In this document: piece by piece, positions 16,088 through 27,913 of the stretch
Layout of the letters: every line of letters starts with the position of its first letter
Position numbering within the stretch: the stretch's first letter is position 1
Origin: an uncultured Gemmatimonadaceae bacterium
Lineage (GTDB): Bacteria; Gemmatimonadota; Gemmatimonadetes; Gemmatimonadales; Gemmatimonadaceae
Direction of reading: 5' to 3'
Length of the DNA: 64,000 bases
NCBI GenBank assembly: GCA_963740355.1
Contig: CAVUDW010000003.1
Location: 1,536,001 to 1,600,000, forward strand
Translations under genes and position numbers: made by a program
Notes under the pieces: generated by a model
What the model was told of the DNA's origin: nothing
The model's database searches: none
What the model saw: only the letters and a program-made list of their open reading frames with translations

Positions 16088-16203
16088 GACTGGTCCCGAT
16101 GGGGTCGCGGTCGTACGGAATGGTGGACGGTAGGCAGCCGGCGACCGCGCTGTCAACGATGCCCCCGCTGCGGTGTCGGCCATATCGCGCTACACTGACG
16201 TTC

Positions 16204-17430
16204 GTGACGACACCAACGCCGCGCCAACTGCTCGAAACGATCTACCACGACGCCATCGCTGCGCTCCAGCCGGAACCAGCCGTCGCATCAGCGCTCGACG
16301 CCGTCTACGGCCCTGGCCACTGGCCCCCATCGATTCACGTGGTCGCGATCGGCAAGGCGTCGCACACCATGGCAGCGGCGGCGTTGGAGTGGTGCGCCGC
16401 GAAGCAGGTGCAGGTGCTCGGCGGGTTGTGCATCGCGCACGTCGCTGGCGGTGCCCCCCTTGGGCCGCTCACCATGCTCACCGGCAATCACCCGATTCCC
16501 GGGCCAGACTCCGCCACCGCAGCCGAGGGTGTCGGGACGTACATCGCAGAGCGTGTGCGTGAGCGCGACGCGGTGCTGGTGCTGCTCTCGGGCGGAACCT
16601 CAGCGCTGATCGGGGCACCGCTCGCCGGTCTATCGCCGGACGAATACGCGTCGACGACGGAGGCACTGATTGGTGGTGGGCTGAGCATCAACGCGATAAA
16701 TCGTGAACGCCGCCGTCTCTCTCGATGGGCACGCGGTCGCCTTGGCGAGGCGCTCCAGGCCCGCGGGGCGACGGTCGAGGTGCTGGTGATCTCCGATGTG
16801 ATCGGCGACGATCTGGCATCGATCGGCAGCGGGCCCTGCATCCCTGATGCAACCAGCGACGCGCCACCGATTCCGCATCGCATCATCAGCAGCAATCGCG
16901 CCGCGCGCGAACTGGTGCTCGCCGCGGCGCAGCGGAACGGCCTGACGCCGGTGCGCGTCGATGAACCGCTGCGCGGCGACGTTGGATACTGTGCCGAACG
17001 GATCGCGCTGGTGCTGCGCACACACGCCATGCACGCGCGCACCGGCTCCCACGCGCACAAGCTGGTGTGCTGGGGCGGCGAACCGACGGTGACCTTGCCC
17101 GGACCGCACGCCCCGCCGGGCGGCCGCATGCAAGCGCTGGCCCTCGCGCTCGCGAAGGAATTGCACAATGCCGGCGCCGATGCCCGCAGCATCACGATCC
17201 TCGCCGCAGGCACGGATGGCCGCGACGGTGCGACCGATGCGGCAGGTGCGGTCGTGGACGGACGAACCTGGTCCGCGATCCGCAGTGTCGGGCGCGCGCC
17301 GGAGCACGATCTGGCGTCGTACCAGAGCCATCAGGCGCTGTCGCTGATCGGCGCGCTGGTTCCGGCCTTCGCGAGTGGCACCAACGTGAATGACCTCGTC
17401 ATCGCGCTGGTCCAGCGCGACGAGGACTAG
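16204..17430 (+). CDS. Glycerate 2-kinase (MOFRL family)
   Basis: AIGKAS, GNHPIP, LLSGGTSAL, ISDVIGDD, GGEPTV, GTDGRDG, GTNVNDL. Confidence 0.9.
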   Translation: MTTPTPRQLLETIYHDAIAALQPEPAVASALDAVYGPGHWPPSIHVVAIGKASHTMAAAALEWCAAKQVQVLGGLCIAHVAGGAPLGPLTMLTGNHPIPGPDSATAAEGVGTYIAERVRERDAVLVLLSGGTSALIGAPLAGLSPDEYASTTEALIGGGLSINAINRERRRLSRWARGRLGEALQARGATVEVLVISDVIGDDLASIGSGPCIPDATSDAPPIPHRIISSNRAARELVLAAAQRNGLTPVRVDEPLRGDVGYCAERIALVLRTHAMHARTGSHAHKLVCWGGEPTVTLPGPHAPPGGRMQALALALAKELHNAGADARSITILAAGTDGRDGATDAAGAVVDGRTWSAIRSVGRAPEHDLASYQSHQALSLIGALVPAFASGTNVNDLVIALVQRDED

Positions 17431-17436
17431 CGGAAG

Positions 17437-18432
17437 CTACGTACCGAGCGCGGCGAGGAATTCTGTCATGTCTTCGATCGCGGAAATGCTGTGCACCTCC
17501 CGGAACACGAGCAGTGCCGCTTCACCACTCGCGCGAGCAGTCCCGAGCTCACGCCGCCTCAACGCAATGTTCGCCTGCATCTGCAGGGCCTGACCCTCCT
17601 GCAGCCGGTGCCCGTGCGTCTGTGCAAGCCGGATCGCCTGCACTAATGCGCCATCGGCACCGAGTGTGTCTCCAAGCTGGTCCGCGGCGTCGGCGAGCAT
17701 CCACCACGCATCTGCCTCGAGGAGGAAGTCGGGCAGCGCGCTGAAAACCTTGATCGCGCGCGTCAGCGTCGCATGCGCCCACGCGGGATCGCCGCGGCGC
17801 AGCGCGATGTCCGCGCGGCCGGCGAGGGCCATCGCTGACAATCGCTCGTCCGGCGCCTCACGTGCGAACTCGATGGCGCGCCGCTCCGCCTCATCCGCTG
17901 CGGTCAGTTCGCCGCGCATCCGATATGCGATGCCGAGATTGTGAGAGCTTTCCGCGAGGCCACGGGCATGCCCGAGCCGCTGGTACGCCGGCATGGCCAG
18001 TTGGTACGCAGCGATCGCGCGGTCTGCGTCACCGTGCAGGGCGGCAATGGCACCGAGGTTGTTGGTTGCCCGCGCCGTGAGTAGCGCGTCGTCGTCCCGC
18101 CGTGACCGCGACAGCGCATCGCCGAAGTGATCGGCGGCGACATCGAGCATGCCGAGCGAGAAAGCCGCAGCGCCCTGCATGTTGATCGCGCGTCGCAACG
18201 CAGGCTGGTCGCCGGAACGATCCAGTAGCGTGGCCGCGCGCGTCAACCATGTCGTGGCGGTCCGAGGATCCCCCGTGCGCAAGCACGCCTCTGCCAGCAG
18301 GATGGCCCGCGCGCCGTCCTGCTCCGTGGCGATGGCGTCCTGTTCCAGGGTTGAACGCACGTCTGCCCACGCCCCGGCAACAGCCGAGACGCGCGCCACG
18401 TTCAACACCGGATCACCGCCGAGAAGCGACAT
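17437..18432 (-). CDS. TPR protein, module copy 1
   Basis: INMQG, TNNLG and SHNLG repeats; no signal peptide; paralog of 21595-22590. Confidence 0.85.
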   Translation of the reverse strand: MSLLGGDPVLNVARVSAVAGAWADVRSTLEQDAIATEQDGARAILLAEACLRTGDPRTATTWLTRAATLLDRSGDQPALRRAINMQGAAAFSLGMLDVAADHFGDALSRSRRDDDALLTARATNNLGAIAALHGDADRAIAAYQLAMPAYQRLGHARGLAESSHNLGIAYRMRGELTAADEAERRAIEFAREAPDERLSAMALAGRADIALRRGDPAWAHATLTRAIKVFSALPDFLLEADAWWMLADAADQLGDTLGADGALVQAIRLAQTHGHRLQEGQALQMQANIALRRRELGTARASGEAALLVFREVHSISAIEDMTEFLAALGT

Positions 18433-18448
18433 GACTCTTTAGTACGCG

Positions 18449-19084
18449 TTAGTACGCGATGGCGTGCGCGGTGAATGAGAGCAAGTCGGCCTTCACTTCA
18501 CTCAGGTTCCCCGAGATCTCGACCGCGCTGGTCAGCTTGAACCATGGCTGCCCAACGGCTTCCTGCTTCCAGATCGCGAACGACGGCACGAGGTTGGTGT
18601 CGGTCTGGTTGACCGATCCGTCACGATTGAAGTCGGGGTCACAGTTCTTGAAGTCGAGCCGGAGTTCCGCCGGCCGCGAGTCGCTGAACGTGAGCCCACT
18701 CGGCGCAAAGTCCGTGATCAGTTTGGTGAAGTCGCGAACGCGAATCGTGATACGTACCGAATCACCCGCCGCGAAGGCCGAGCCGTCGGGGCGACGAAGC
18801 AACGATTCGTTCCTCACGCGAAAACGCAGGAACCGCACCGAGTCTGTGTTCCCGGGGTTCGGGCGATAGTACATCGCGACCTCACGATCCTGGCCCTTCA
18901 CCGCCCAGAAGCTGACGCTGTCGGTGCGTAGCGCGGTACCCGTCGCGGGCTTGAGAAACCGCAGGCTGGTCTCGGGCGTGCCGCTACCGCCTGGCGTTGG
19001 CGTCGGATTGACCGGGGTGTCACTGGAGCAGGCGATGGCCAGCATCGCCGTCAGGGCGACCGCCGCCCATGTCGTATGTCGCAT
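18449..19084 (-). CDS. Lipoprotein B, copy 1 (ZU5-like, DxNxDG motif)
   Basis: Lipobox AIAC; FAPSGLTF..PAEL; DFNRDGSVNQTD; ends SFTAHAIAY. Confidence 0.8.
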   Translation of the reverse strand: MRHTTWAAVALTAMLAIACSSDTPVNPTPTPGGSGTPETSLRFLKPATGTALRTDSVSFWAVKGQDREVAMYYRPNPGNTDSVRFLRFRVRNESLLRRPDGSAFAAGDSVRITIRVRDFTKLITDFAPSGLTFSDSRPAELRLDFKNCDPDFNRDGSVNQTDTNLVPSFAIWKQEAVGQPWFKLTSAVEISGNLSEVKADLLSFTAHAIAY

Positions 19085-19085
19085 C

Positions 19086-20459
19086 TCAGAAATCCTCGTT
19101 GAGTTCATCATCGGTCGCGCCAGAAGCCTGCGCATCCAGCAACCGCTGCAACCGCGGTCGGCTGATGCCAAGTCGTCGCGCCGCTTCGCTCTTGTTGCCA
19201 CCGCATCGTTGTAGCATGGCACTGGCCGCACCACGCGCCAGCATCGACAGCGACGCCGGCCATGGCAACTCGCCACCGGCAGCCCCTGCCGCCACCGTGG
19301 CGCCGTCGCCAGCCATGTCCGCAACGTCCATCCGTACCCCATCACAGAGCAGCAGCGCCCGCTCGATGACGTTCCGCAGCTCGCGCACGTTGCCCGGCCA
19401 GGAACGCTCCACCAGCGACCGCTGCGCCGCCGCTGACAACTGCGGCACGGGCATCATGCCATACTCGTGCGCAAACTTGCTCACGAACGCCTGCGCCAAG
19501 CCGACGACATCGTCCGCCCGATCGCGCAGCGGCGGCAGTTCGATCGGCATCACGTTCAGCCGATACCACAGGTCTTCGCGAAATTCCTTGCGCGCCACCG
19601 CTGCCTTCAGCTCGACATGTGTCGCCGCGATCACGCGCACATCGAAGGGAATGGTGCGTGTGCCGCCCACGCGTCGCAGCGTGCGTTCTTCCAGCACCCG
19701 CAACAGCTTGCCCTGCAGGGTCAGCGGCAGGTGGCCGATCTCATCGAGGAACAAGGTGCCGCCGTGCGCCAGCTCGAAGAGCCCAGGCTTCGCCGCGCGG
19801 GCATCGGTGAAGGCGCCCGCTTCGTGACCGAACAACTCACTTTCCAGGAGATTGTCGGGAATGGCGGTGCAGTTCACATCCACGAACGGCTGCTTGCCGC
19901 GTGGTCCGTTGTAGTGGATGGCGCGCGCGAACAACTCCTTGCCGGTTCCCGTCTCGCCAGTGAGCAACACCGTGACATTCGCGTGTGGAATCACCCGTGC
20001 CGCGCGTGTCAGTGCTGCCCGCAAGGCCGGGCTCGAGCCGAGGATTCCGTCAAAGGAGTATTTCATCCCTTCACGTGACGCGAAGGCGGAGCCATCACCC
20101 TGCTCCGCAATGCGCCGCGCCGCATCGTTCACCCAGCTTCGCAAGGCCTCGAGATCGCCTGGCAGCGCGAAGTACTCCTGTGCGCCATGCCGCATGGCAC
20201 TCACCGCCAGCCGATGGTCGGCCACCGACCCGACCACTGCCGTGAACGAGGGCACCGCCACCCGTTCGAGAGCGCTGATCGCATCACGTTCCACGCCGCC
20301 CGCCGCGAGCAGATGTATGGCATCCGGCGTTGCCGACCACGCAGCGAGCCCCTCGCTGGTGGAGGGATGTGCCTGCAGCGACGCGCCGGATGCCGTGGCC
20401 AGTTCCGGCCACAGCATCTCGAACGAATCCGACCAGCCAAGGAGTGCGAGCGTCGTCAC
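19086..20459 (-). CDS. Sigma-54 enhancer-binding protein with degenerate receiver, copy 1
   Basis: GETGTGKE, ESELFGHEAGAFTDA, LFLDE, WPGNVREL; Fis-type HTH GNKSEAARRLGISR. Confidence 0.95.
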   Translation of the reverse strand: MTTLALLGWSDSFEMLWPELATASGASLQAHPSTSEGLAAWSATPDAIHLLAAGGVERDAISALERVAVPSFTAVVGSVADHRLAVSAMRHGAQEYFALPGDLEALRSWVNDAARRIAEQGDGSAFASREGMKYSFDGILGSSPALRAALTRAARVIPHANVTVLLTGETGTGKELFARAIHYNGPRGKQPFVDVNCTAIPDNLLESELFGHEAGAFTDARAAKPGLFELAHGGTLFLDEIGHLPLTLQGKLLRVLEERTLRRVGGTRTIPFDVRVIAATHVELKAAVARKEFREDLWYRLNVMPIELPPLRDRADDVVGLAQAFVSKFAHEYGMMPVPQLSAAAQRSLVERSWPGNVRELRNVIERALLLCDGVRMDVADMAGDGATVAAGAAGGELPWPASLSMLARGAASAMLQRCGGNKSEAARRLGISRPRLQRLLDAQASGATDDELNEDF

Positions 20460-20524
20460 CAGTATCGATGGCGCTCGTACCGCGCGCCGAGAGAGGAGTC
20501 ATGTCACGGCACCGGCGCAATCGC

Positions 20525-21370
20525 TCAGCCGTGGCCGCTGCCTTCGTGTCCACGGCTCGATCCGCGACCACTGTCTTCATGGCCATCGCGATCCCGATCG
20601 CCGAAGGCGCGGAAGGACGTCATGATATTCTGGTCGATCGCGGCCTGATTTGCGACCGTCGGGGCCAACAAGGCACCACCAGCGCTCTTGAACCAGGAAG
20701 ACAGATCGAGTGCGATCGAGACATTGTCGTTCACGCCCGACTGCACCACGAGTGAGGGCTCGAACTCGAACTCCACCTCGGCGCGCGCCTTGCTCAGGAA
20801 CGTGAACGCGGTGCCCTTGTAGGTACCGCTCACCTTCACGGTGACGTCGCGAAACTCCGGGTGTGCGGCCAGAAAGTCCTTGTCGGCCTGTGGGGCGTTG
20901 GCGCTCGTGCTGACGTCGTCGATCTCGAACTCGAATTCATGATAGGTGCCCGCAGGCACGGTCACGGCCAGAGGCGACGTGCTGGCACCGCTCAGCGGTA
21001 GATCGAGCAGCATTGGGCCGAGATCGAGCCGCGAGCAGCCGCCCTTGTCCGAACTGCGACCACGCGTGCTACTGACCGTCATCGAGTCTGGGCACGCCGT
21101 CACCCCTTCGCGACGCAGCTTCACGTTGCCCAGCACCAGCTGCACCTTGTTGATCACCATCGTGTCGGAGGACGTGCCGACGATGATGGCATTGCCGGCG
21201 GCGTTGGTCGCCGCGGTGCCGGTGGCGGCAAACGAGACAGACAACGCGGTGGCACCGGCGGACCCGGCGTCGGTGGTCGCGGTCGCGCCATCGCCACAGG
21301 CGGCGAGGGTGCACAGCAACGTGAGAGGCAGCACCCCAAGAGGGCGCGGTGGGAGCAGGCGTGTGATCAT
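20525..21370 (-). CDS. Lipoprotein A, copy 1 (DUF4382-like beta-sandwich, C-terminal DxDxDG)
   Basis: Lipobox LAAC; VPAGTY; ends AFGDRDRDGHED; GGAG RBS. Confidence 0.8.
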   Translation of the reverse strand: MITRLLPPRPLGVLPLTLLCTLAACGDGATATTDAGSAGATALSVSFAATGTAATNAAGNAIIVGTSSDTMVINKVQLVLGNVKLRREGVTACPDSMTVSSTRGRSSDKGGCSRLDLGPMLLDLPLSGASTSPLAVTVPAGTYHEFEFEIDDVSTSANAPQADKDFLAAHPEFRDVTVKVSGTYKGTAFTFLSKARAEVEFEFEPSLVVQSGVNDNVSIALDLSSWFKSAGGALLAPTVANQAAIDQNIMTSFRAFGDRDRDGHEDSGRGSSRGHEGSGHG

Positions 21371-21423
21371 CAGAATCTCCTGAAGAGGGGCGAACTGTCG
21401 GATGGTTCTCGAGGCTGAAGTGG

Positions 21424-21438
21424 GCATGACACGCGCCA
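21424..21438 (-). promoter_or_regulatory. Sigma-54 -24/-12 promoter, copy 1
   Basis: TGGCGCGTGTCATGC (GG-N10-GC). Confidence 0.7.
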
Positions 21439-21543
21439 TGCCGCCGTTCGCCGGTTGACCATCACAACCCTCTCAGGGACAACGACTTACAAGATTCGCC
21501 CGAGGGCGCAGTGGGGCCGCATCGCGCTCGTGGCGTTCCACCC

Positions 21544-21560
21544 TGTATCGTGGCGATGCA
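21544..21560. promoter_or_regulatory. Putative enhancer (UAS) palindrome, copy 1
   Basis: TGTATCG-tgg-CGATGCA, 106 bp from the promoter edge; related site 20 bp away (21524-21540). Confidence 0.6.
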
Positions 21561-21594
21561 GCGACAGTGACTGCACGGCCCTCCGCCCTGTCGG

Positions 21595-22590
21595 CTACCG
21601 AGGCAGGCTCGCGATGAATGCAGCCATGTCATTCACGGAGGCCTGGCTGCCGACACGGCTGAACGCGTCGAGCGCATCCGAACCGATTCGTGCGGCTGCC
21701 GTCACGTCGCCGCGTCGCAACATGATGTGGGCGTGCGTCTGAAGGATCTGCGCCTCTTGCAAGAGATGCCCGTGATCACGCGCAAGCTGATACGCTTTCT
21801 CCAGCAGGGTGTCGGCCACGACGGGAATGCGGAGCCGGTCGCTGGCATCAGCCTGCACCCGCACCGCGTCTGCCTGCAGCAGGAAATCAGGCACGGTGCT
21901 GAACAGGGTGGCGGCACGCGATGCGTTGGCGCGCGCCCACAGGAAATCGCCACGGAGCAGCGAAATCTCCGCGCGCCCGACCTGTGCCATCGCAACCAGG
22001 CGCAGGTTGCCGGACTCGTTGGCGTACTCGCTCGCACGACGCTCCGCTTCGTCCGCGTCGTCGAGCTTTCCAAGCGAGCGATACGAGATCCCGAGGTTGT
22101 GCCAACTCTCAGCCAGCCCAAGTGTGTGGCCGAGCCGCTGATAGGCCGGAATGGCGAGTTGGTATGCCGCGATGGCCCCGGCCGTATTGCCGCGAAGCGC
22201 CTCGATGGCGCCAAGGTTGTTGATCGCGCGCGCGGTAAGCAATCCATCGCCATCTACGCGTGCCATGTCCAGCGCGGTCCCGAAACTCTCCGCCGCCGCG
22301 TCGAGCCGACCGAGGGAAAACGCTGCGGCTCCCTGCATGTTGATCGCGCGTCGCTCGGCGGGGCGATCTCCGACGCGCGACAGCAGCCCCGTCGCCGTGT
22401 CGAGCCACCGCCGCGCCGTACGCGCATCGCCCGTGCGAAGGTACGCCTCCGCCAGCAGGAGCGCGCTCGCCCCGTCGCGCCCTGCGACCTCGTCGGCGCC
22501 TGCGAGCTTGTCGCGCACCACACCCCACGCGCCGATACCGGCGGCGGCGCGAGCGGACGACAGCACAGAATCGACGGGTGGTCCTGACAT
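21595..22590 (-). CDS. TPR protein, module copy 2
   Basis: Collinear paralog of 17437-18432 (RRAINMQGAAAFSLG, AIAAYQLA.PAYQRLGH). Confidence 0.85.
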   Translation of the reverse strand: MSGPPVDSVLSSARAAAGIGAWGVVRDKLAGADEVAGRDGASALLLAEAYLRTGDARTARRWLDTATGLLSRVGDRPAERRAINMQGAAAFSLGRLDAAAESFGTALDMARVDGDGLLTARAINNLGAIEALRGNTAGAIAAYQLAIPAYQRLGHTLGLAESWHNLGISYRSLGKLDDADEAERRASEYANESGNLRLVAMAQVGRAEISLLRGDFLWARANASRAATLFSTVPDFLLQADAVRVQADASDRLRIPVVADTLLEKAYQLARDHGHLLQEAQILQTHAHIMLRRGDVTAAARIGSDALDAFSRVGSQASVNDMAAFIASLPR

Positions 22591-22597
22591 GATCGCG

Positions 22598-23233
22598 CTA
22601 GTAGGCGATCGCGTGGTTCGTGAACGACAGGATCTGCGCCTCGATCTCCCGCAGATCACCTGAAACTTCGGCGCGGCTCGAGAGTTTGACCCACGGCTGC
22701 CCCGCAAATTCCTGCTTCCAGATGGCGAAGTCCGCGATGCGCAGTGAATCGGCTTGCGTCACGGCGCCATCTCGGTTGTAGTCCTCGTCGCAGTTCTTGA
22801 AGTCGAGCCGCAACTCGGCCGGCTCGGCGGGATTGAACACCAAGCCACTCGGCAAGTACTCCGTGATCACGCGTGCGCTATCGCGCACCTTGATCGTGAT
22901 CCGAATGGAATCGCCGAACACGAATGGCGTCCCATCGGGACGGCGCAAGAGCGCGGCGCCGCCAACCTTGAAGCGCAGGAAGCGTACCGAGTCGCTCTTG
23001 CCCGCAGCGGGGCGGAAGTAGAGCGAGACCTCTCGATCCTTGCCACGGACTGCCCAGAAACTGACGCTGTCCTTGCTCAGGACGGCGCCAGGCGCAAAGC
23101 GGAGAAAGGAAAGTTGAGTTTCGGGACGCGTCGGCGATTCCAGACTCGGATCCACCGGAGCGCCATCGCTGGACGCACAGCCGAGCAGCAACAGCGCTGC
23201 CACCGTGCAAAGAAACTTTCGCTGGTCAAACAT
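22598..23233 (-). CDS. Lipoprotein B, copy 2
   Basis: Lipobox LLGC; DSVSFWAV; DYNRDGAVTQAD; ends SFTNHAIAY. Confidence 0.8.
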   Translation of the reverse strand: MFDQRKFLCTVAALLLLGCASSDGAPVDPSLESPTRPETQLSFLRFAPGAVLSKDSVSFWAVRGKDREVSLYFRPAAGKSDSVRFLRFKVGGAALLRRPDGTPFVFGDSIRITIKVRDSARVITEYLPSGLVFNPAEPAELRLDFKNCDEDYNRDGAVTQADSLRIADFAIWKQEFAGQPWVKLSSRAEVSGDLREIEAQILSFTNHAIAY

Positions 23234-23234
23234 T

Positions 23235-24617
23235 TCAGTACTCCTCACGGGAATCGTCGTTCGTTGCACCATCAACAGGCGCATCCACGAGTCGCTGCAG
23301 GCGCTGCCGACTGATGCCCAGTCGCCGCGCCGCCTCGCTCTTGTTTCCATTGCAACGCTCGATCATGGCCAGCCCTGCACTGCGCACCAGCACACCCAGT
23401 GTGGACGGCCAGTCCAATTCGCCCGCTTCCACGGCGCTGCGCTTCACGGCCAGGCGCGCGTCGTCAATCGCCACGTCCCCGGCCTCGATTACATCGCCAT
23501 TTGACACCAGCATCGCGCGCTCGATCACGTTACGGACCTCGCGCACGTTCCCGGGCCAGGTGCGCGAAGTCAGCGCGTGGATGGCCCCCTCGGACAACGT
23601 TGGTACCGGGGAGATGCCGTACTCCTTCGCAAATCGACGCACGAACGCACTCGCCAGCTCGATCACGTCCTCCATTCGCTCGCGCAGCGGCGGAAGGACG
23701 ATGGGCATTACGTTCAAGCGATACCACAAGTCTTCACGGAACTCGCCGCGCGCCACCGCGCTATGCAAGTCGACATGCGTGGCAGCAATGATCCGCACGT
23801 CGAAGCCGATGCTTCGTGTGCCGCCCACGCGCCGCAGCGTACGCTCTTCCAGCACACGCAAAAGCTTGCCCTGCAAGACGAGTGGGAGGTGCCCGATTTC
23901 GTCCAGAAACAGTGTGCCGCCGTCGGCCAGCTCGAAGAGACCTGGCTTGGCCGTGCGGGCATCGGTGAATGCACCGGCCTCATGGCCGAACAGTTCACTC
24001 TCGAGCAGCGTCTCCGGAATCGCAGTGCAATTCACCTCGACGAACGGTTGGGTGGCGCGTGGCCCATTGTAGTGAATGGCACGCGCGAATAGCTCCTTGC
24101 CCGTACCCGTTTCCCCGGTCAGCAGTACGGTGACATTCTGCCGCGGAATCACGCGACTGGCGACGGCCATCACGTTCCGCAACGCCGCACTCGAGCCGAG
24201 GATGCCGTCGAAGGTGTACTTGCGCCCTTCTCGCGCAGCAAACGCCGAGCCGGCGAGCGCCTCGGACTGCTGACGCGCGGCGTCATCGATCCAGCTCCGC
24301 AGGGGCTCGAGGTCGCCAGGCAGCGCAAAATACTCCTTCGCTCCCGAGCGCAGCGCACGCACCGCCACGCGATAGTCGATCGTACCGCCAACCATTGCGG
24401 CAGTGCCGAGCGACGTCTGCCGGCCCACCGAGGCGATTGCCTCCATTTCCACACCACCCGCGGCGTGCACTGTGATCGTATCCCGCCTCGCCGCATGCAA
24501 TTCCAGCAGCTCCGGCGACGCCTGCGCCATCTCGAGCGACAGGCCAGACGCTGTGGCCAATTCGGGCCACAGCGCCTCAAACGAGTTTGACCACTGAAAG
24601 ACAACGAGCGATGTCAC
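23235..24617 (-). CDS. Sigma-54 enhancer-binding protein with degenerate receiver, copy 2
   Basis: Same AAA+, GAFTDA and HTH motifs as copy 1; GTG start inferred from alignment with copy 1. Confidence 0.95.
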   Translation of the reverse strand: MTSLVVFQWSNSFEALWPELATASGLSLEMAQASPELLELHAARRDTITVHAAGGVEMEAIASVGRQTSLGTAAMVGGTIDYRVAVRALRSGAKEYFALPGDLEPLRSWIDDAARQQSEALAGSAFAAREGRKYTFDGILGSSAALRNVMAVASRVIPRQNVTVLLTGETGTGKELFARAIHYNGPRATQPFVEVNCTAIPETLLESELFGHEAGAFTDARTAKPGLFELADGGTLFLDEIGHLPLVLQGKLLRVLEERTLRRVGGTRSIGFDVRIIAATHVDLHSAVARGEFREDLWYRLNVMPIVLPPLRERMEDVIELASAFVRRFAKEYGISPVPTLSEGAIHALTSRTWPGNVREVRNVIERAMLVSNGDVIEAGDVAIDDARLAVKRSAVEAGELDWPSTLGVLVRSAGLAMIERCNGNKSEAARRLGISRQRLQRLVDAPVDGATNDDSREEY

Positions 24618-24683
24618 GTGATGGCTGAACGTCTGACGGTTGCACCGGGTGCAGCGCGAGATCGCGGCACCCGGTGCACGCAA

Positions 24684-25508
24684 TCAAGGCTGTCCCTGTC
24701 GGCTACGCTCGCGACCGCGACCTGAGTCTTCCTTTCCGTCGCGGTTCCGATCGCCGAAGGCATCGAAAGATGTCACGATGTTCTGCTCGATGCGTGATTG
24801 GTTCTCAACCGTCGGTGCGAGCAATCCGCCGGTCTCGCCCCGGAACCAGCGGCCGAGATCGAGCGACACCGTGATGTTGTCGTTGACACCTGCCTCGACC
24901 AACAGCGCAGGCTCAAACTCGAACTCCACTTCCGCCTCGACGTGACTGACGAAGGTGAACGGCACGCCACGATACGTCCCCGTGACGCGAACCGTCACGT
25001 CACGGAACTCGGGGTGCTGCGCCACGAACAGGCTCTCGGCAGCCGACGCACTGCTCCCGGTGCGCACTTTGTCGAGCTCGAACTCGATCTCACGATACGA
25101 TCCTGCGGGGATCGCGACTGCCAGCTTCGACGCGCCAGTGCTGTCGAGCGGCACGTCGAGCAGCATGGGGCCGAGATCGAGGCGAGAGCAGCCGCGTTCA
25201 TCGGAGCTCCGCTCACGATTGGGGCTGACGGGAATGCTGTCCGGGCACGCCGCGACGTCCGCGCGGCGGAGTTCAACGTTGCCCAGAACCAGTTGGACGG
25301 TGGAGATCTTCAGCGTATCACCCGCAGCGCCGACCAGGATTGACTGTCCTGCCGCGTTGGTCGCCAGCGCACCCGTGCTGGCAAATGAGACAGAGAGACT
25401 GGTGGCACCACCACCAGAAGCGAGCGGATCCGTGCCGCACGCTGCCAGGGTTGAGAGGAGCGTGACCGGCATCCAGACGCGGCGTCGCGAGAGGGAGCGG
25501 ATGTTCAT
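24684..25508 (-). CDS. Lipoprotein A, copy 2
   Basis: Lipobox LAAC; CSRLDLGPMLLD; ends AFGDRNRDGKED. Confidence 0.8.
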   Translation of the reverse strand: MNIRSLSRRRVWMPVTLLSTLAACGTDPLASGGGATSLSVSFASTGALATNAAGQSILVGAAGDTLKISTVQLVLGNVELRRADVAACPDSIPVSPNRERSSDERGCSRLDLGPMLLDVPLDSTGASKLAVAIPAGSYREIEFELDKVRTGSSASAAESLFVAQHPEFRDVTVRVTGTYRGVPFTFVSHVEAEVEFEFEPALLVEAGVNDNITVSLDLGRWFRGETGGLLAPTVENQSRIEQNIVTSFDAFGDRNRDGKEDSGRGRERSRQGQP

Positions 25509-25567
25509 TTGAAAGCCTCGACAGTAGAAGTTTGCCGACACCAGATTCGATGTCACTGTAGAGCTAG

Positions 25568-25582
25568 GCAACTGAAATGCCA
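25568..25582 (-). promoter_or_regulatory. Sigma-54 -24/-12 promoter, copy 2
   Basis: TGGCATTTCAGTTGC, close to consensus TGGCACN5TTGC. Confidence 0.8.
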
Positions 25583-25605
25583 CGGCAATTCGACTCGAGG
25601 CCAGC

Positions 25606-25634
25606 AATCAAGTCGTTGCGCCACAACGTTTTAC
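25606..25634. promoter_or_regulatory. IHF-like site(s)
   Basis: AATCAAGTCGTTG matches WATCAANNNNTTR; inverted partner CAACGTTTTAC at 25624. Confidence 0.6.
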
Positions 25635-25687
25635 GCGAATGCGACGCTCGCCGGCCATTGCCTGAGGTTGTTGCGAAATCATACGGC

Positions 25688-25704
25688 TGTACCATTTTGG
25701 TACA
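25688..25704. promoter_or_regulatory. Putative enhancer (UAS) palindrome, copy 2
   Basis: Perfect TGTACCA-ttt-TGGTACA, 106 bp from the promoter edge. Confidence 0.7.
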
Positions 25705-25890: not shown

Positions 25891-26820
25891 ATGACCGCTT
25901 CGTCCACGTTCACGGTGGGCCTCGTCCAGATGGCCGTCACCGGCGACCGTGCCACCACGGTGACCGCCGCGATCGAGAAGATCCGCGAGGCGGCCGCCCG
26001 TGGCGCACAGATCATCTCCCTGCAGGAGCTGTTCAACGCTCCGTACTTCTGCAAATCCCTGAAGCTGGAACGCTTCGACATCGCGGAGCCCATTCCCGGG
26101 CCGACCGTCGAACTGTTGCAGGGCGTCGCGCAGGAACTCGGCGTGGTGCTGGTGGTGCCGATCTACGAGAAGCAGGCACCGGGTCTGTACAAGAACTCCG
26201 CCGCCGTCATCGACGCCGACGGTGCGCTGCTTGGCACGTATCGCAAGATGCACATCCCGCACGACCCGATGTTCGAGGAGAAGTACTACTTCACCCCCGG
26301 CGACGTCGGCCCCGATCTGCGCACGGATAAGCATCCGGGCGTGAATGGGTTCCGCGTCTGGCAAACGAAATTTGCGAAGATCGGTGTGCTCATCTGCTGG
26401 GATCAGTGGTATCCGGAAGCCGCTCGCATCACCGCCATGCTCGGTGCCGAGGTGTTGTTCTATCCCACCGCGATCGGTTGGCACCCCGCCGAGAAGGCGA
26501 CGTTCGGTGCGGCGCAGGTCGATGCGTGGCGCACGGCACAGCGGGCGCACGCGATCGCGAACGGTGTGTTCGTGGCGGCCGCCAATCGTGTCGGATTCGA
26601 GCCCGAGCCCGGCACGGATGGCCTCGAGTTCTTCGGCAACTCGTTCATCTGCGATCCCATCGGTCGCTACCTGACGCAGGCGGGCACCGATCCCGAAGTG
26701 CTCATCGCGACCTGTGATCGTGCCCTGATCGAGGACACCCGTCGCAACTGGCCGTTCCTTCGTGATCGCCGCATCGATGCCTACGCACCCATCACCCAGC
26801 GGTGGCTCGGTGGCGCCTGA
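25891..26820 (+). CDS. aguB: N-carbamoylputrescine amidase (CN hydrolase)
   Basis: LQELF, YRKMHIP, EKYYFTPGD, ICWDQWYPEAAR, YPTAIGW; adjacent to agmatine deiminase. Confidence 0.9.
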   Translation: MTASSTFTVGLVQMAVTGDRATTVTAAIEKIREAAARGAQIISLQELFNAPYFCKSLKLERFDIAEPIPGPTVELLQGVAQELGVVLVVPIYEKQAPGLYKNSAAVIDADGALLGTYRKMHIPHDPMFEEKYYFTPGDVGPDLRTDKHPGVNGFRVWQTKFAKIGVLICWDQWYPEAARITAMLGAEVLFYPTAIGWHPAEKATFGAAQVDAWRTAQRAHAIANGVFVAAANRVGFEPEPGTDGLEFFGNSFICDPIGRYLTQAGTDPEVLIATCDRALIEDTRRNWPFLRDRRIDAYAPITQRWLGGA

Positions 26821-26830
26821 TCACGGACGG

Positions 26831-27913
26831 ATGCCACACGTGACACCGCTCACGTCGCCCACACGTCGCATGCCGGCGGAATGGGAGCAGCACGCGGCGA
26901 CCTGGCTGGCGTGGCCGGTGCACGAACCCGACTGGCCCGGCAAGTTCGCGCCGATCCCCTGGGTGTATGCGGAGATCGTCCGTGTGCTGGCGCAATACGA
27001 GCGAGTGGATGTGCTCTGCAACGACGCGCATGTCCGAGAACAGGCGCGCGAGATGCTGGCCGCACATTCCGTCAATCTCGACAATGTGCGACTCCATGTC
27101 GCACGCACCGATCGCGTCTGGGTTCGCGATTCGGGGCCCACCGGTGTGCACCGACCCGACGGTTCGGTGGAGCTGGTGCAATGGGGCTTCAACGCGTGGG
27201 CGAAATACGAGAACTATCTGCACGACACGCAGGTGCCGGAGCATGTGGCAGAGTTCACCGGCCTGCCGATCACGCGGGCACAGCGCGCCGATGGCAACGG
27301 GGCGCTCGTCCTCGAGGGTGGTGGCATCGAGGTGAACGGCCGCGGGCGCATTCTCGTCACCGAGGAATGGCTGCTGACGGACCTCCAGGTACGCAATCCT
27401 GGGTTCGGGCGCGCCGACTACGAGCGTGCGTTTGCGGAATGGCTTGGCTGTCCCGAAACGATCTGGCTCGGTGAAGGCTGCGTTGGAGACGACACACACG
27501 GCCACGTTGACGACATTGCGCGCTTCACCAGCGGCGACACCGTGCTGCTGGCCGTCGAGCGCGATCCAATGGACGACGAAAACCATCGCCGATCCATCGA
27601 CAACCTGCATCGCTTGCAGCGGGTGGGCGGCGCTGCGGGGCCGCTCCGGGTGATCGAGCTGCCATACCCGCGAGCGGTGATGATGGACGGCGTGCGCTTG
27701 CCAGCGAGTTACGCAAATTTCTACGTCGCCAACGGCGTGGTGATCGTTCCGACGTTCAACGATCCGAACGATCGCGTGGCCATGAACATCATCGCCGACT
27801 GCTTCCCGGGTCGCGCCATCGTCGGCATTCACGCCGTCGACCTGGTGTGGGGTCTGGGCACACTGCACTGCCTCACACAGCAGCAACCAGCGGCGCGCAA
27901 CTCGCACCGCTGA
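26831..27913 (+). CDS. aguA: Agmatine deiminase
   Basis: MPAEWE, WVRDSGP, LEGGGI, DDTHGHVDD, ASYANF, GTLHCLTQQQP. Confidence 0.93.
   Translation: MPHVTPLTSPTRRMPAEWEQHAATWLAWPVHEPDWPGKFAPIPWVYAEIVRVLAQYERVDVLCNDAHVREQAREMLAAHSVNLDNVRLHVARTDRVWVRDSGPTGVHRPDGSVELVQWGFNAWAKYENYLHDTQVPEHVAEFTGLPITRAQRADGNGALVLEGGGIEVNGRGRILVTEEWLLTDLQVRNPGFGRADYERAFAEWLGCPETIWLGEGCVGDDTHGHVDDIARFTSGDTVLLAVERDPMDDENHRRSIDNLHRLQRVGGAAGPLRVIELPYPRAVMMDGVRLPASYANFYVANGVVIVPTFNDPNDRVAMNIIADCFPGRAIVGIHAVDLVWGLGTLHCLTQQQPAARNSHR

Follow-up and report, generated by a model that had tools for sequence, protein, structure and literature searches.

The sigma-54 activators PspF, NifA and FleQ are controlled by a partner protein (PspA, NifL and FleN, respectively) and not by a kinase, and the receiver domain of FleQ is atypical; to our knowledge, none of these pairs uses a TPR peptide receptor. 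Peptide signalling by import and binding is known from Gram-positive bacteria, and among its receptors the Rap proteins act in trans on response regulators. In the accessible text of PMC10075063, an RRNPP system is recognised by a cytoplasmic TPR receptor of 250-500 residues which adjoins the gene of a propeptide of 10-100 residues, and that of PMC7117660 gives cCF10 as a heptapeptide cut from a lipoprotein precursor. Proteins of the ZU5/GAIN superfamily are described as self-cleaving at a Ser or Thr after a hydrophobic residue, ahead of the last strand (available parts of PMC9539791 and bioRxiv 10.64898/2026.05.12.724683). Here, a window of 64,000 nucleotides from an uncultured Gemmatimonadaceae bacterium (contig CAVUDW010000003.1, positions 1,536,001 to 1,600,000) was analysed, in which eight minus-strand genes form two collinear copies of a module with the gene order A-E-B-T, encoding a lipoprotein (A), a sigma-54 activator (E), a second lipoprotein (B) and a TPR protein (T). 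The strongest of our claims, drawn from sequence covariation, is that T very probably binds the C-terminal tail of B. For the module as a whole, we lean towards a circuit in which peptide signalling by a self-cleaving lipoprotein leads to sigma-54 transcription in a bacterium with two membranes.

A three-gene core and covariation of the B tail with the T groove

Relatives with named records fall in Gemmatimonadota, and the B profile matched 101 of 301 genomes drawn from this phylum and 873 representatives at 50% identity. The profile of the E N-terminal domain matched 95 of the same genomes, 88 of them strongly, and a B match was also present in 87 of these 88. In a metagenome scan, one protein query gave 8 loci and another gave no match. 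A B-centred set of 180 regions, mostly best-scoring matches (143 from one large family and 32 from the window's own family), was reduced to 178 loci by dropping two duplicates; 60 regions were narrow and can miss A. E and T were both found within 3.5 kb of B in 165 of the 178 loci, T without E in six and neither in seven, while A was present in 90 and varied in position and strand. B stood directly before T in most loci, and the order B-E-T occurred in some. Around 20 E genes without a nearby B match, T directly followed E in 17 regions, 16 of which were A-A-E-T. T is the hub, since some loci keep it with B in the absence of E and others with E in the absence of B. The core of the module is thus E, B and T, with A accessory; co-occurrence of the four families across Gemmatimonadota had been named as a check in the initial annotation, and the genes do co-occur across the phylum.

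Altogether 202 B-T pairs were collected and 191 single pairs were used, 134 of them from one family. Mutual information, computed first on 120 rows, gave a noisy picture in which several tail positions nonetheless scored against T. Regularised direct-coupling analysis of 166 single E-B-T triples placed I209-A88 (B residue first) at the top with z 20.6, followed by A210-Y150 and H207-A131, and the tail took part in 12 of the top 15 B-T pairs; the control blocks from the same triples reached at most z 8.7 (E-T) and 8.2 (E-B). With the 191 pairs, the same three led in the same order (I209-A88, z 21.6), and the tail, 7 of 171 columns, entered 13 of the top 20 pairs, while residues 195-204 of B entered none of these 20. 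The same pair, I209-A88, also led in each of four random halves and when the large family was taken by itself. Ile or Val at 209 came with Ala88 in 143 of 144 pairs and Leu at 209 with a larger residue in 33 of 40, and for this trait T88 was the top of 313 T columns (9.6 vs 4.8). All 99 pairs with a basic residue at 206 had an acid at T92, and 21 of the 22 with an acidic 206 had none, which represents three independent changes only.

Within successive repeats, the T residues 88, 92, 128, 131, 168 and 172 fall at positions 9, 12 and 13 of the first helix; they lie beside N84, N124, N125 and N165 and presumably face the groove as in general TPR geometry. The order of pairs along the groove was one-directional (211-52, 209-88, 207-131, 205-168). 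Of the 178 pairs with seven-residue tails, 164 had R52 in T and 169 an acid at T208, and R52 was present in 6 of 13 pairs with longer tails, the long-tailed cases being mutually related; R52 and acid 208 may clamp the two free ends of the peptide. In loci outside the covariation set with two modules or two B genes (L141, L167, L250), a Leu tail was accompanied by Val88 and an Ile tail by Ala88. In 10 of the 11 tandem double-T proteins listed, residue 150 was Phe in one half and Tyr in the second, and in five of nine double-T loci the B-family genes supply both tail types. One mismatch was seen in L105, where the Leu-bearing half of a doubled tail faces Ala88.

Kin share residues, and with 134 of 191 pairs in one family the covariation might reflect the shared ancestry of an ordinary co-transcribed operon. 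When each B was given the T of a near relative, the top z fell to 6.7-8.5 in six of six runs. With a tree built without the tested columns, 209/88 changed jointly in 8.4 of 10 independent pairs and never in the opposite sense (median p 0.008), and 210/150 and 207/131 gave p 0.03. In the swap, the independent pairs and the control blocks (E-B and E-T), ancestry is retained and the signal disappears, and the pair order along the groove is monotonic, which together make the ancestry explanation highly improbable.

Predicted self-cleavage, import and transcriptional output

The AlphaFold model of mature B1 (predicted local distance difference test 92) matched the ankyrin ZU5 domain best (Z 9.8, root-mean-square deviation 2.8, 119 aligned), followed by UNC5b (Z 8.1), CD97 GAIN (7.5), CARD8 (6.0) and Nup98 (4.4), with the NLRP1 FIIND also matched. 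The best 11 Foldseek rows were ZU5 proteins throughout, and PF00791 ZU5 was found in 38% of the members of the nearest named Atlas (language-model) cluster. The Z values are modest, yet the whole ZU5/GAIN superfamily rises together, and by modelled fold and by motif B is a member of the ZU5/GAIN/Nup98 superfamily. Among 418 distinct B homologues, the residue after the site was Thr in 269, Ser in 142 and Cys in 4, so that a nucleophile was kept in 415, and such interchange is the behaviour of a nucleophile. The residue before the site was Phe in 414, the one at -2 was Gly in 230, Ser in 125 and His in 50, and the tail ran exactly seven residues to the protein end in 353; the last strand of the mature B1 model is 188-192. 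B is therefore likely to cleave itself, at a bond predicted between Phe204 and Thr205.

Four B homologues have a Cys nucleophile (HFC) and tails of 14-16 residues (L105:6657 onward, L181:5458, L186:4848, L187:4636); these tails read as two successive heptapeptides, and all four genes adjoin tandem double-TPR genes of about 670 residues. A second ZU5 lipoprotein family, with canonical HFS and a seven-residue tail, stands directly before TPR-HD-GYP fusions, next to the A-E-B-T module (L026:3096-3632, L066:3657-4226, L070:11141-12943, L136, L143, L156). Arrays of three to six B-family genes with differing tails, mixed with several T domains, were seen in L116, L117, L105, L030 and L191, and some B genes in them have extra N-terminal domains (430-454 residues). 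Distant B-like proteins in L189 and L190 have no Phe-Ser/Thr site, and T and E neighbours are absent there too.

A dockerin-like DxNxDG loop is inserted in the B fold and may bind calcium; a dockerin identity for B was rejected, as the match spans 23 positions. The structure model of A1 has the MbnP fold (Z 9.6, root-mean-square deviation 3.7, 183 aligned). Among 70 A members, weak family matches were obtained to PF20243 (14) and PF14321 (21), and the DUF4382 match of A2 in Pfam lay below threshold. WxW, the copper motif of MbnP, was absent from A1, A2 and the consensus of the 70 members, and a copper-binding MbnP function for A was rejected on this ground. A is the main transcribed output of the circuit. 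The initial annotation had taken A and B together as lipoproteins with calcium motifs that are outputs and/or signal sources, and in its stricter form, without any peptide, T gates E while both lipoproteins are mere outputs or calcium-sensing parts. That form suits the DxDxDG-type motifs in both proteins and the existence of A-A-E-T loci without B. It is very unlikely, since the tail-groove covariation, the fixed tail length and the kept nucleophile stay unexplained and the loop is absent from at least one B homologue (L031). B rather appears as a ZU5/GAIN protein with the likely T ligand and A as an accessory output, and the calcium motifs are not the main feature.

The commonest neighbour of the module was an SBP_bac_5 (OppA-like) gene, found within 1 kb in 33 of 97 wide loci and in 28 of 66 of the large family. 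The linked genes were divergent from, convergent to or in line with the module and the proteins of the most distant genomes were just 24-27% identical, which suggests that an OppA-like gene was recruited more than once. Four SBP_bac_5 genes were found in this genome, and the one closest to the linked genes heads an unlinked Opp-type operon. A dedicated binding protein that works with the chromosomal permease has a precedent in enterococci, where, in the available text of PMC7117660, the OppA-like PrgZ brings in the Opp encoded on the chromosome. We consider it fairly probable that the B peptide reaches T from outside the cytoplasm. T could instead bind the tail of a stuck or unfolded B precursor in the cytoplasm and signal secretion stress to E, with no release and no import. 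Such an export or folding monitor would cover the tail-groove covariation and the Arg pair near the C-terminal end of the peptide (R52 in 164 of 178) without transport, and the window has no linked transporter. It would need no nucleophile, yet Ser, Thr or Cys is kept in 415 of 418 homologues; besides, the covariation stops at residue 205, acid 208 of T lies near the predicted free N-terminus in 169 of 178 pairs, and OppA-like genes are linked in several arrangements. This monitor is unlikely, and import of a released peptide is preferred.

T1 and T2 have 331 residues each, with TPR_12 above cut-off. The best natural solved relatives of T by profile were the TPR domains of LGN/Pins, kinesin light chain and BKLC, and no RRNPP protein (Rap, NprR, PlcR, PrgX, Rgg) was among the best 60 of 147 solved-structure matches. 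TPR-HD-GYP fusions keep N84, the acid at 92, N125, N131 and N165, so this TPR type serves as the input domain for other outputs.

In E, PF00158 and PF02954 were above cut-off, and the N-terminal domain was receiver-like (best match LuxO, E 3e-5). At position 52, 116 of 120 rows had Ala, Leu, Ser, Asn or Met, and position 99 was never Lys. A kinase input to E was rejected, as the phosphorylated Asp and the conserved Lys are lost from the receiver, which bears out the initial view of an activator without phosphorylatable input; kinases were among the recurrent module neighbours in 9 of 126 loci at most. S12, F13, G55, E57 and R83 are nearly invariant around the former active site in the 120 rows, and this patch is likely a partner surface. 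The ATPase motifs are intact (Walker A in 118 of 120), and the loop is GAFTDA in 68, GAFTGA in 46 and GSFTGA in 5 of the 120, so the first two variants alternate within one family. E was below the curated cut-off of all 25 NCBIfam families listed, including PspF and NifA, and RpoN is present in this genome.

Control of E by T, which the initial annotation had proposed, stays plausible from gene order and is likely on that basis, without any T-E covariation to go with it. The complex of T1 and the receiver of E1 (residues 1-137) was modelled twice from 102-row alignments, with a score of 0.02 each time, informative neither way. B and T could also be ligand and receptor with a target other than E, E being under another input, for example a small molecule on the pseudo-receiver. 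The missing T-E covariation, the six of 178 loci with B-T and no E, and 11 of 98 genomes with a B match and no E-type receiver fit such an arrangement. T directly follows E in 17 of 20 loci without B, T has no output domain of its own, and HD-GYP outputs are found fused to related TPR domains in which the groove residues are the same, which leaves another target quite improbable and E the preferred one.

With a threshold score of at least 9/12 and within 130 nt of the A gene, a -24/-12 site was found near 57 of 90 A genes, vs 4 on the opposite strand and 1 further upstream. The palindrome TGYA-N9-TRCA, first read from the two window sites, lay before 45 of these 57 promoters vs 18% in shuffles, with distance classes of 90-100, 110-113 and 122-126 nt. 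In this genome, with 104 enhancer-like matches, the pair of palindrome and promoter occurs before A1 and A2 only, so the circuit seems self-controlling; a wider regulon was rejected on the same count. The module thus seems to autoregulate, and the autoregulated circuit suggested initially fits the promoter and enhancer before each copy and nowhere else in the genome. One clade (L072, L089, L131, L145, L155, L164 and related loci) has a sigma-54-like site in the E-B gap of about 115 nt, so B and T may have their own promoter there.

The proposed circuit would run as follows. B, which carries a lipobox, would be exported and lipid-anchored and would cut Phe204/Thr205, so that its last beta-strand becomes a separate seven-residue peptide still held in the fold. 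Pulling, unfolding or turnover of B would free the peptide, which would be imported, probably by an Opp-type ATP-binding cassette transporter, as the linked OppA-like genes suggest. It would then lie lengthwise in the T groove, with the C-terminus at the first repeats and the N-terminus near the fourth or fifth, as the covariation suggests. T would alter the activity of E, most likely via the pseudo-receiver, as the gene order suggests, and activation by the peptide is slightly favoured because it gives autoinduction. E would bind the observed palindrome and open its own sigma-54 promoter, also observed, leading to more A, B, E and T. The weakest of these claims concern the release of the peptide and the mode and sign of the action of T on E.

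Several points weigh against this circuit, for which all evidence is computational. Weaker regularisation lowered the B-T z to 18.1, vs 13.0 and 11.3 for the control blocks, with the tail in only 4 of the top 15 B-T pairs, and within the window's own family (41 pairs, top z 7.1) the 209/88 signal was absent. As independent events, 211/51 (p 0.5) and the 206/92 charge swap (p 0.25) were not significant, and the traits for this test were picked after seeing the data. The ZU5 domains of ankyrin and UNC5b, the best fold matches of B, are not known to cleave themselves. The canonical His at -2 occurs in 50 of 418 B homologues only, both copies in the window have Ser there, and the 418 share no conserved His column elsewhere. 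This caveat is softened because CARD8 and NLRP1 cut Ser-Phe-Ser, and a His at -2 is given as inessential in CARD8, NLRP1 and Nup98 (available text of PMC9539791). In the window's own family, SBP_bac_5 linkage falls to 1 of 24 loci, the window itself having none. T-E covariation by domain (183 pairs) gave nothing above the swap control. The 17 loci with E and T and without B leave the ligand there unexplained. The GAFTDA loop is treated as functional in the available text of PMC4641369 and as untested in that of PMC10714721.

Organisation of the two copies and related loci

The features of both copies are given in Table 1. Re-reading of the eight genes upheld two collinear, diverged copies with the same gene order, with A followed by a gap of 65 bp in one copy and 66 bp in the other and a single base pair separating E from B. 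The copies share 62% (A), 67% (E), 58% (B) and 57% (T) protein identity and 66% DNA identity, and a tandem pair occurs likewise in the genomes G004 and G009 (L120 and L119). The duplication is therefore real and older than the strain, and an assembly artefact or repeat was ruled out on the same evidence. No third A or B was found in this genome by tblastn. Each copy has its own promoter architecture, as annotated at first, with a sigma-54 promoter and an enhancer before it; the outer coordinates given then (21560 and 25704) coincide with where the enhancer palindromes of the two copies end. The absence of a histidine kinase and of a membrane-spanning protein from both copies was confirmed, since Pfam gave no kinase domain in the eight proteins and the best 19-residue hydropathy was at most 1.66. 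Lipoboxes were found in A and B and none in T or E. Pfam assigned only TPR repeats to T, the sigma-54 AAA+ domain and helix-turn-helix (HTH) to E and nothing to B. The copies differ in the palindrome, one HTH residue and one tail residue, so the two circuits may be partly insulated from each other. Between A2 and E2 lies a hairpin which may act to stabilise the A message.

Table 1. Coordinates of the module features in the window
Feature	Position	Strand	Remarks
A1 lipoprotein	20525..21370	-	DUF4382/MbnP-like fold; invariant Cys pair; acidic DxDxDG motif near C-terminus
E1 sigma-54 activator	19086..20459	-	Pseudo-receiver; Ala52 for Asp, Leu99 for Lys
B1 lipoprotein	18449..19084	-	ZU5/GAIN fold; dockerin-like DxNxDG loop; predicted cut SF/T
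B1 heptapeptide TAHAIAY, predicted to be released	18452..18472	-	Residues 205-211
T1 cytoplasmic TPR protein	17437..18432	-	40-residue repeats; Asn ladder N84, N124, N125, N165
T1 positions co-varying with B tail	Residues 88, 131, 150		Covariation analysis
Sigma-54 -24/-12 promoter, copy 1	21423..21438	-	
Enhancer-like palindrome, copy 1	21544..21560	-	122 nt upstream of -24 element
A2 lipoprotein	24684..25508	-	DUF4382/MbnP-like fold taken from paralogue A1; accessory output
G+C-rich hairpin between A2 and E2	24618..24683	-	No U-tract; z -4.0 vs mononucleotide shuffles
E2 sigma-54 activator	23235..24617	-	Pseudo-receiver, AAA+ (GAFTDA loop), Fis-type HTH
B2 lipoprotein	22598..23233	-	ZU5/GAIN fold taken from paralogue B1; predicted cut SF/T
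B2 heptapeptide TNHAIAY, predicted to be released	22601..22621	-	Residues 205-211
T2 cytoplasmic TPR protein	21595..22590	-	Predicted peptide receptor
Sigma-54 -24/-12 promoter, copy 2	25567..25582	-	
IHF-consensus match between enhancer and promoter, copy 2	25606..25618	-	
Enhancer-like palindrome, copy 2	25688..25704	-	122 nt upstream of -24 element

The module is flanked by genes at 16099-17430, which we take from motifs to be glycerate-kinase-like, and at 25891-27913, taken likewise to be a carbon-nitrogen hydrolase and agmatine-deiminase-like pair. Twelve weaker T-profile matches lie elsewhere in this genome inside open frames of 910-1375 codons, some of them at G000 C3:1900666, C2:451968, C2:1678702 and C3:1827436. 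The A-A-E-T subclass without B comprises L320-L332, L335, L336 and L338; its T proteins keep the Asn ladder and R52/R81, whereas residue 51 is Trp or Phe, residue 128 is Asn and residue 92 is Ala or Gly, and with these changed groove residues they probably read a different ligand. In about 14 loci (L108-L111, L167, L169, L174-L182), genes for what we read from the sequences as a small Rieske-like and two small membrane proteins converge on T, and in L108 a cation-efflux gene lies between two A genes.

Comparison with known systems

No published description of this unit was found in a search which missed most subscription journals. Liao et al. 2014 (J Mol Biol) reportedly may describe bacterial stand-alone ZU5 proteins. 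The set of 15,000 proteins in the MAIN preprint, as far as its text was available, may include B-like proteins and limits the claim that B has no earlier description.

The TPR domains of LGN/Pins, kinesin light chain and BKLC bind extended peptides on an Asn ladder and resemble T in their long repeats, whereas they have no known link to a secreted precursor or to transcription. Like PspF/PspA, NifA/NifL and FleQ/FleN, the module would have a partner-controlled sigma-54 activator, and E and FleQ both have atypical receivers. E differs from NtrC-type response regulators in having neither the phosphorylatable Asp nor the conserved Lys, and has the hallmarks of sigma-54 enhancer-binding proteins, that is AAA+ domain, Walker motifs, GAFTGA-type loop, HTH, promoter with enhancer and RpoN.

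In the available text of the MAIN preprint (Brogan and Rudner, bioRxiv 10.64898/2026.05.12.724683), cleavage occurs between Phe and Ser of HFS, Ser and Thr are interchangeable and the products stay associated, and no signalling is tied there to the C-terminal fragment, whose role is left open. B shares the fold class with these domains. As described in that text, MAIN proteins are large, with a signal peptide, an N-terminal cargo and a C-terminal cell-surface anchor, whereas B is a lone domain anchored at its N-terminus, so only a strand of seven residues would be freed, and a receptor gene adjoins that of B; B is not of the MAIN architecture. The bacterial ZU5 domains of polymorphic toxins are proposed to self-cleave in surface proteins; they are parts of large RHS or adhesion proteins, from which cargo is released, and a stand-alone lipoprotein, a TPR partner or a transcription output is not in the part of the text available (PMC3482391). 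B resembles the GAIN domain of adhesion G-protein-coupled receptors (GPCRs), the FIIND of NLRP1/CARD8 and Nup98 in its predicted self-cleavage before the last beta-strand, as these are described in the texts available. In adhesion GPCRs the last strand is the tethered agonist, which is joined to the seven-helix receptor, whereas the strand of B would travel free to a cytoplasmic TPR protein.

The module is carried by roughly one in three of the genomes sampled from a phylum that is common and poorly understood. It supplies a candidate ligand, a receptor with predicted contacts, a candidate importer and a promoter readout, and since all parts are small and expressible, import-and-bind signalling and the role of the C-terminal fragment could both be tested with one synthetic peptide. 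The tail-groove code predicts specificity and could give orthogonal peptide-receptor pairs. Our broader reading is tentative: bare GAIN/ZU5 tethered-agonist strands might serve as diffusible signals in Gemmatimonadota, released on force, damage or turnover and read residue by residue by cytoplasmic TPR receptors, with interchangeable outputs (sigma-54 activator or cyclic di-GMP phosphodiesterase) and double receptors for two peptides. If true, peptides would carry cell-to-cell or damage signals in a bacterium with two membranes, and adhesion-GPCR agonism would have a bacterial counterpart.

The RRNPP systems of Firmicutes (Rap/Phr, NprR, PlcR/PapR, PrgX/cCF10) are alike in the cytoplasmic TPR receptor beside its precursor and in the short hydrophobic peptide, which in the module would also be imported by Opp; the length of T1 and T2 lies within the published range, and B directly precedes T in most loci. 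They differ in that the precursor B is a folded lipoprotein of 211 residues instead of a propeptide of 10-100, that its peptide is a C-terminal strand, predicted to be self-cut and not cut by Eep or exopeptidases, that T has no HTH and its target would be a sigma-54 activator, and that the host has two membranes. The unit thus appears to work like RRNPP signalling while its precursor falls outside the RRNPP definition.

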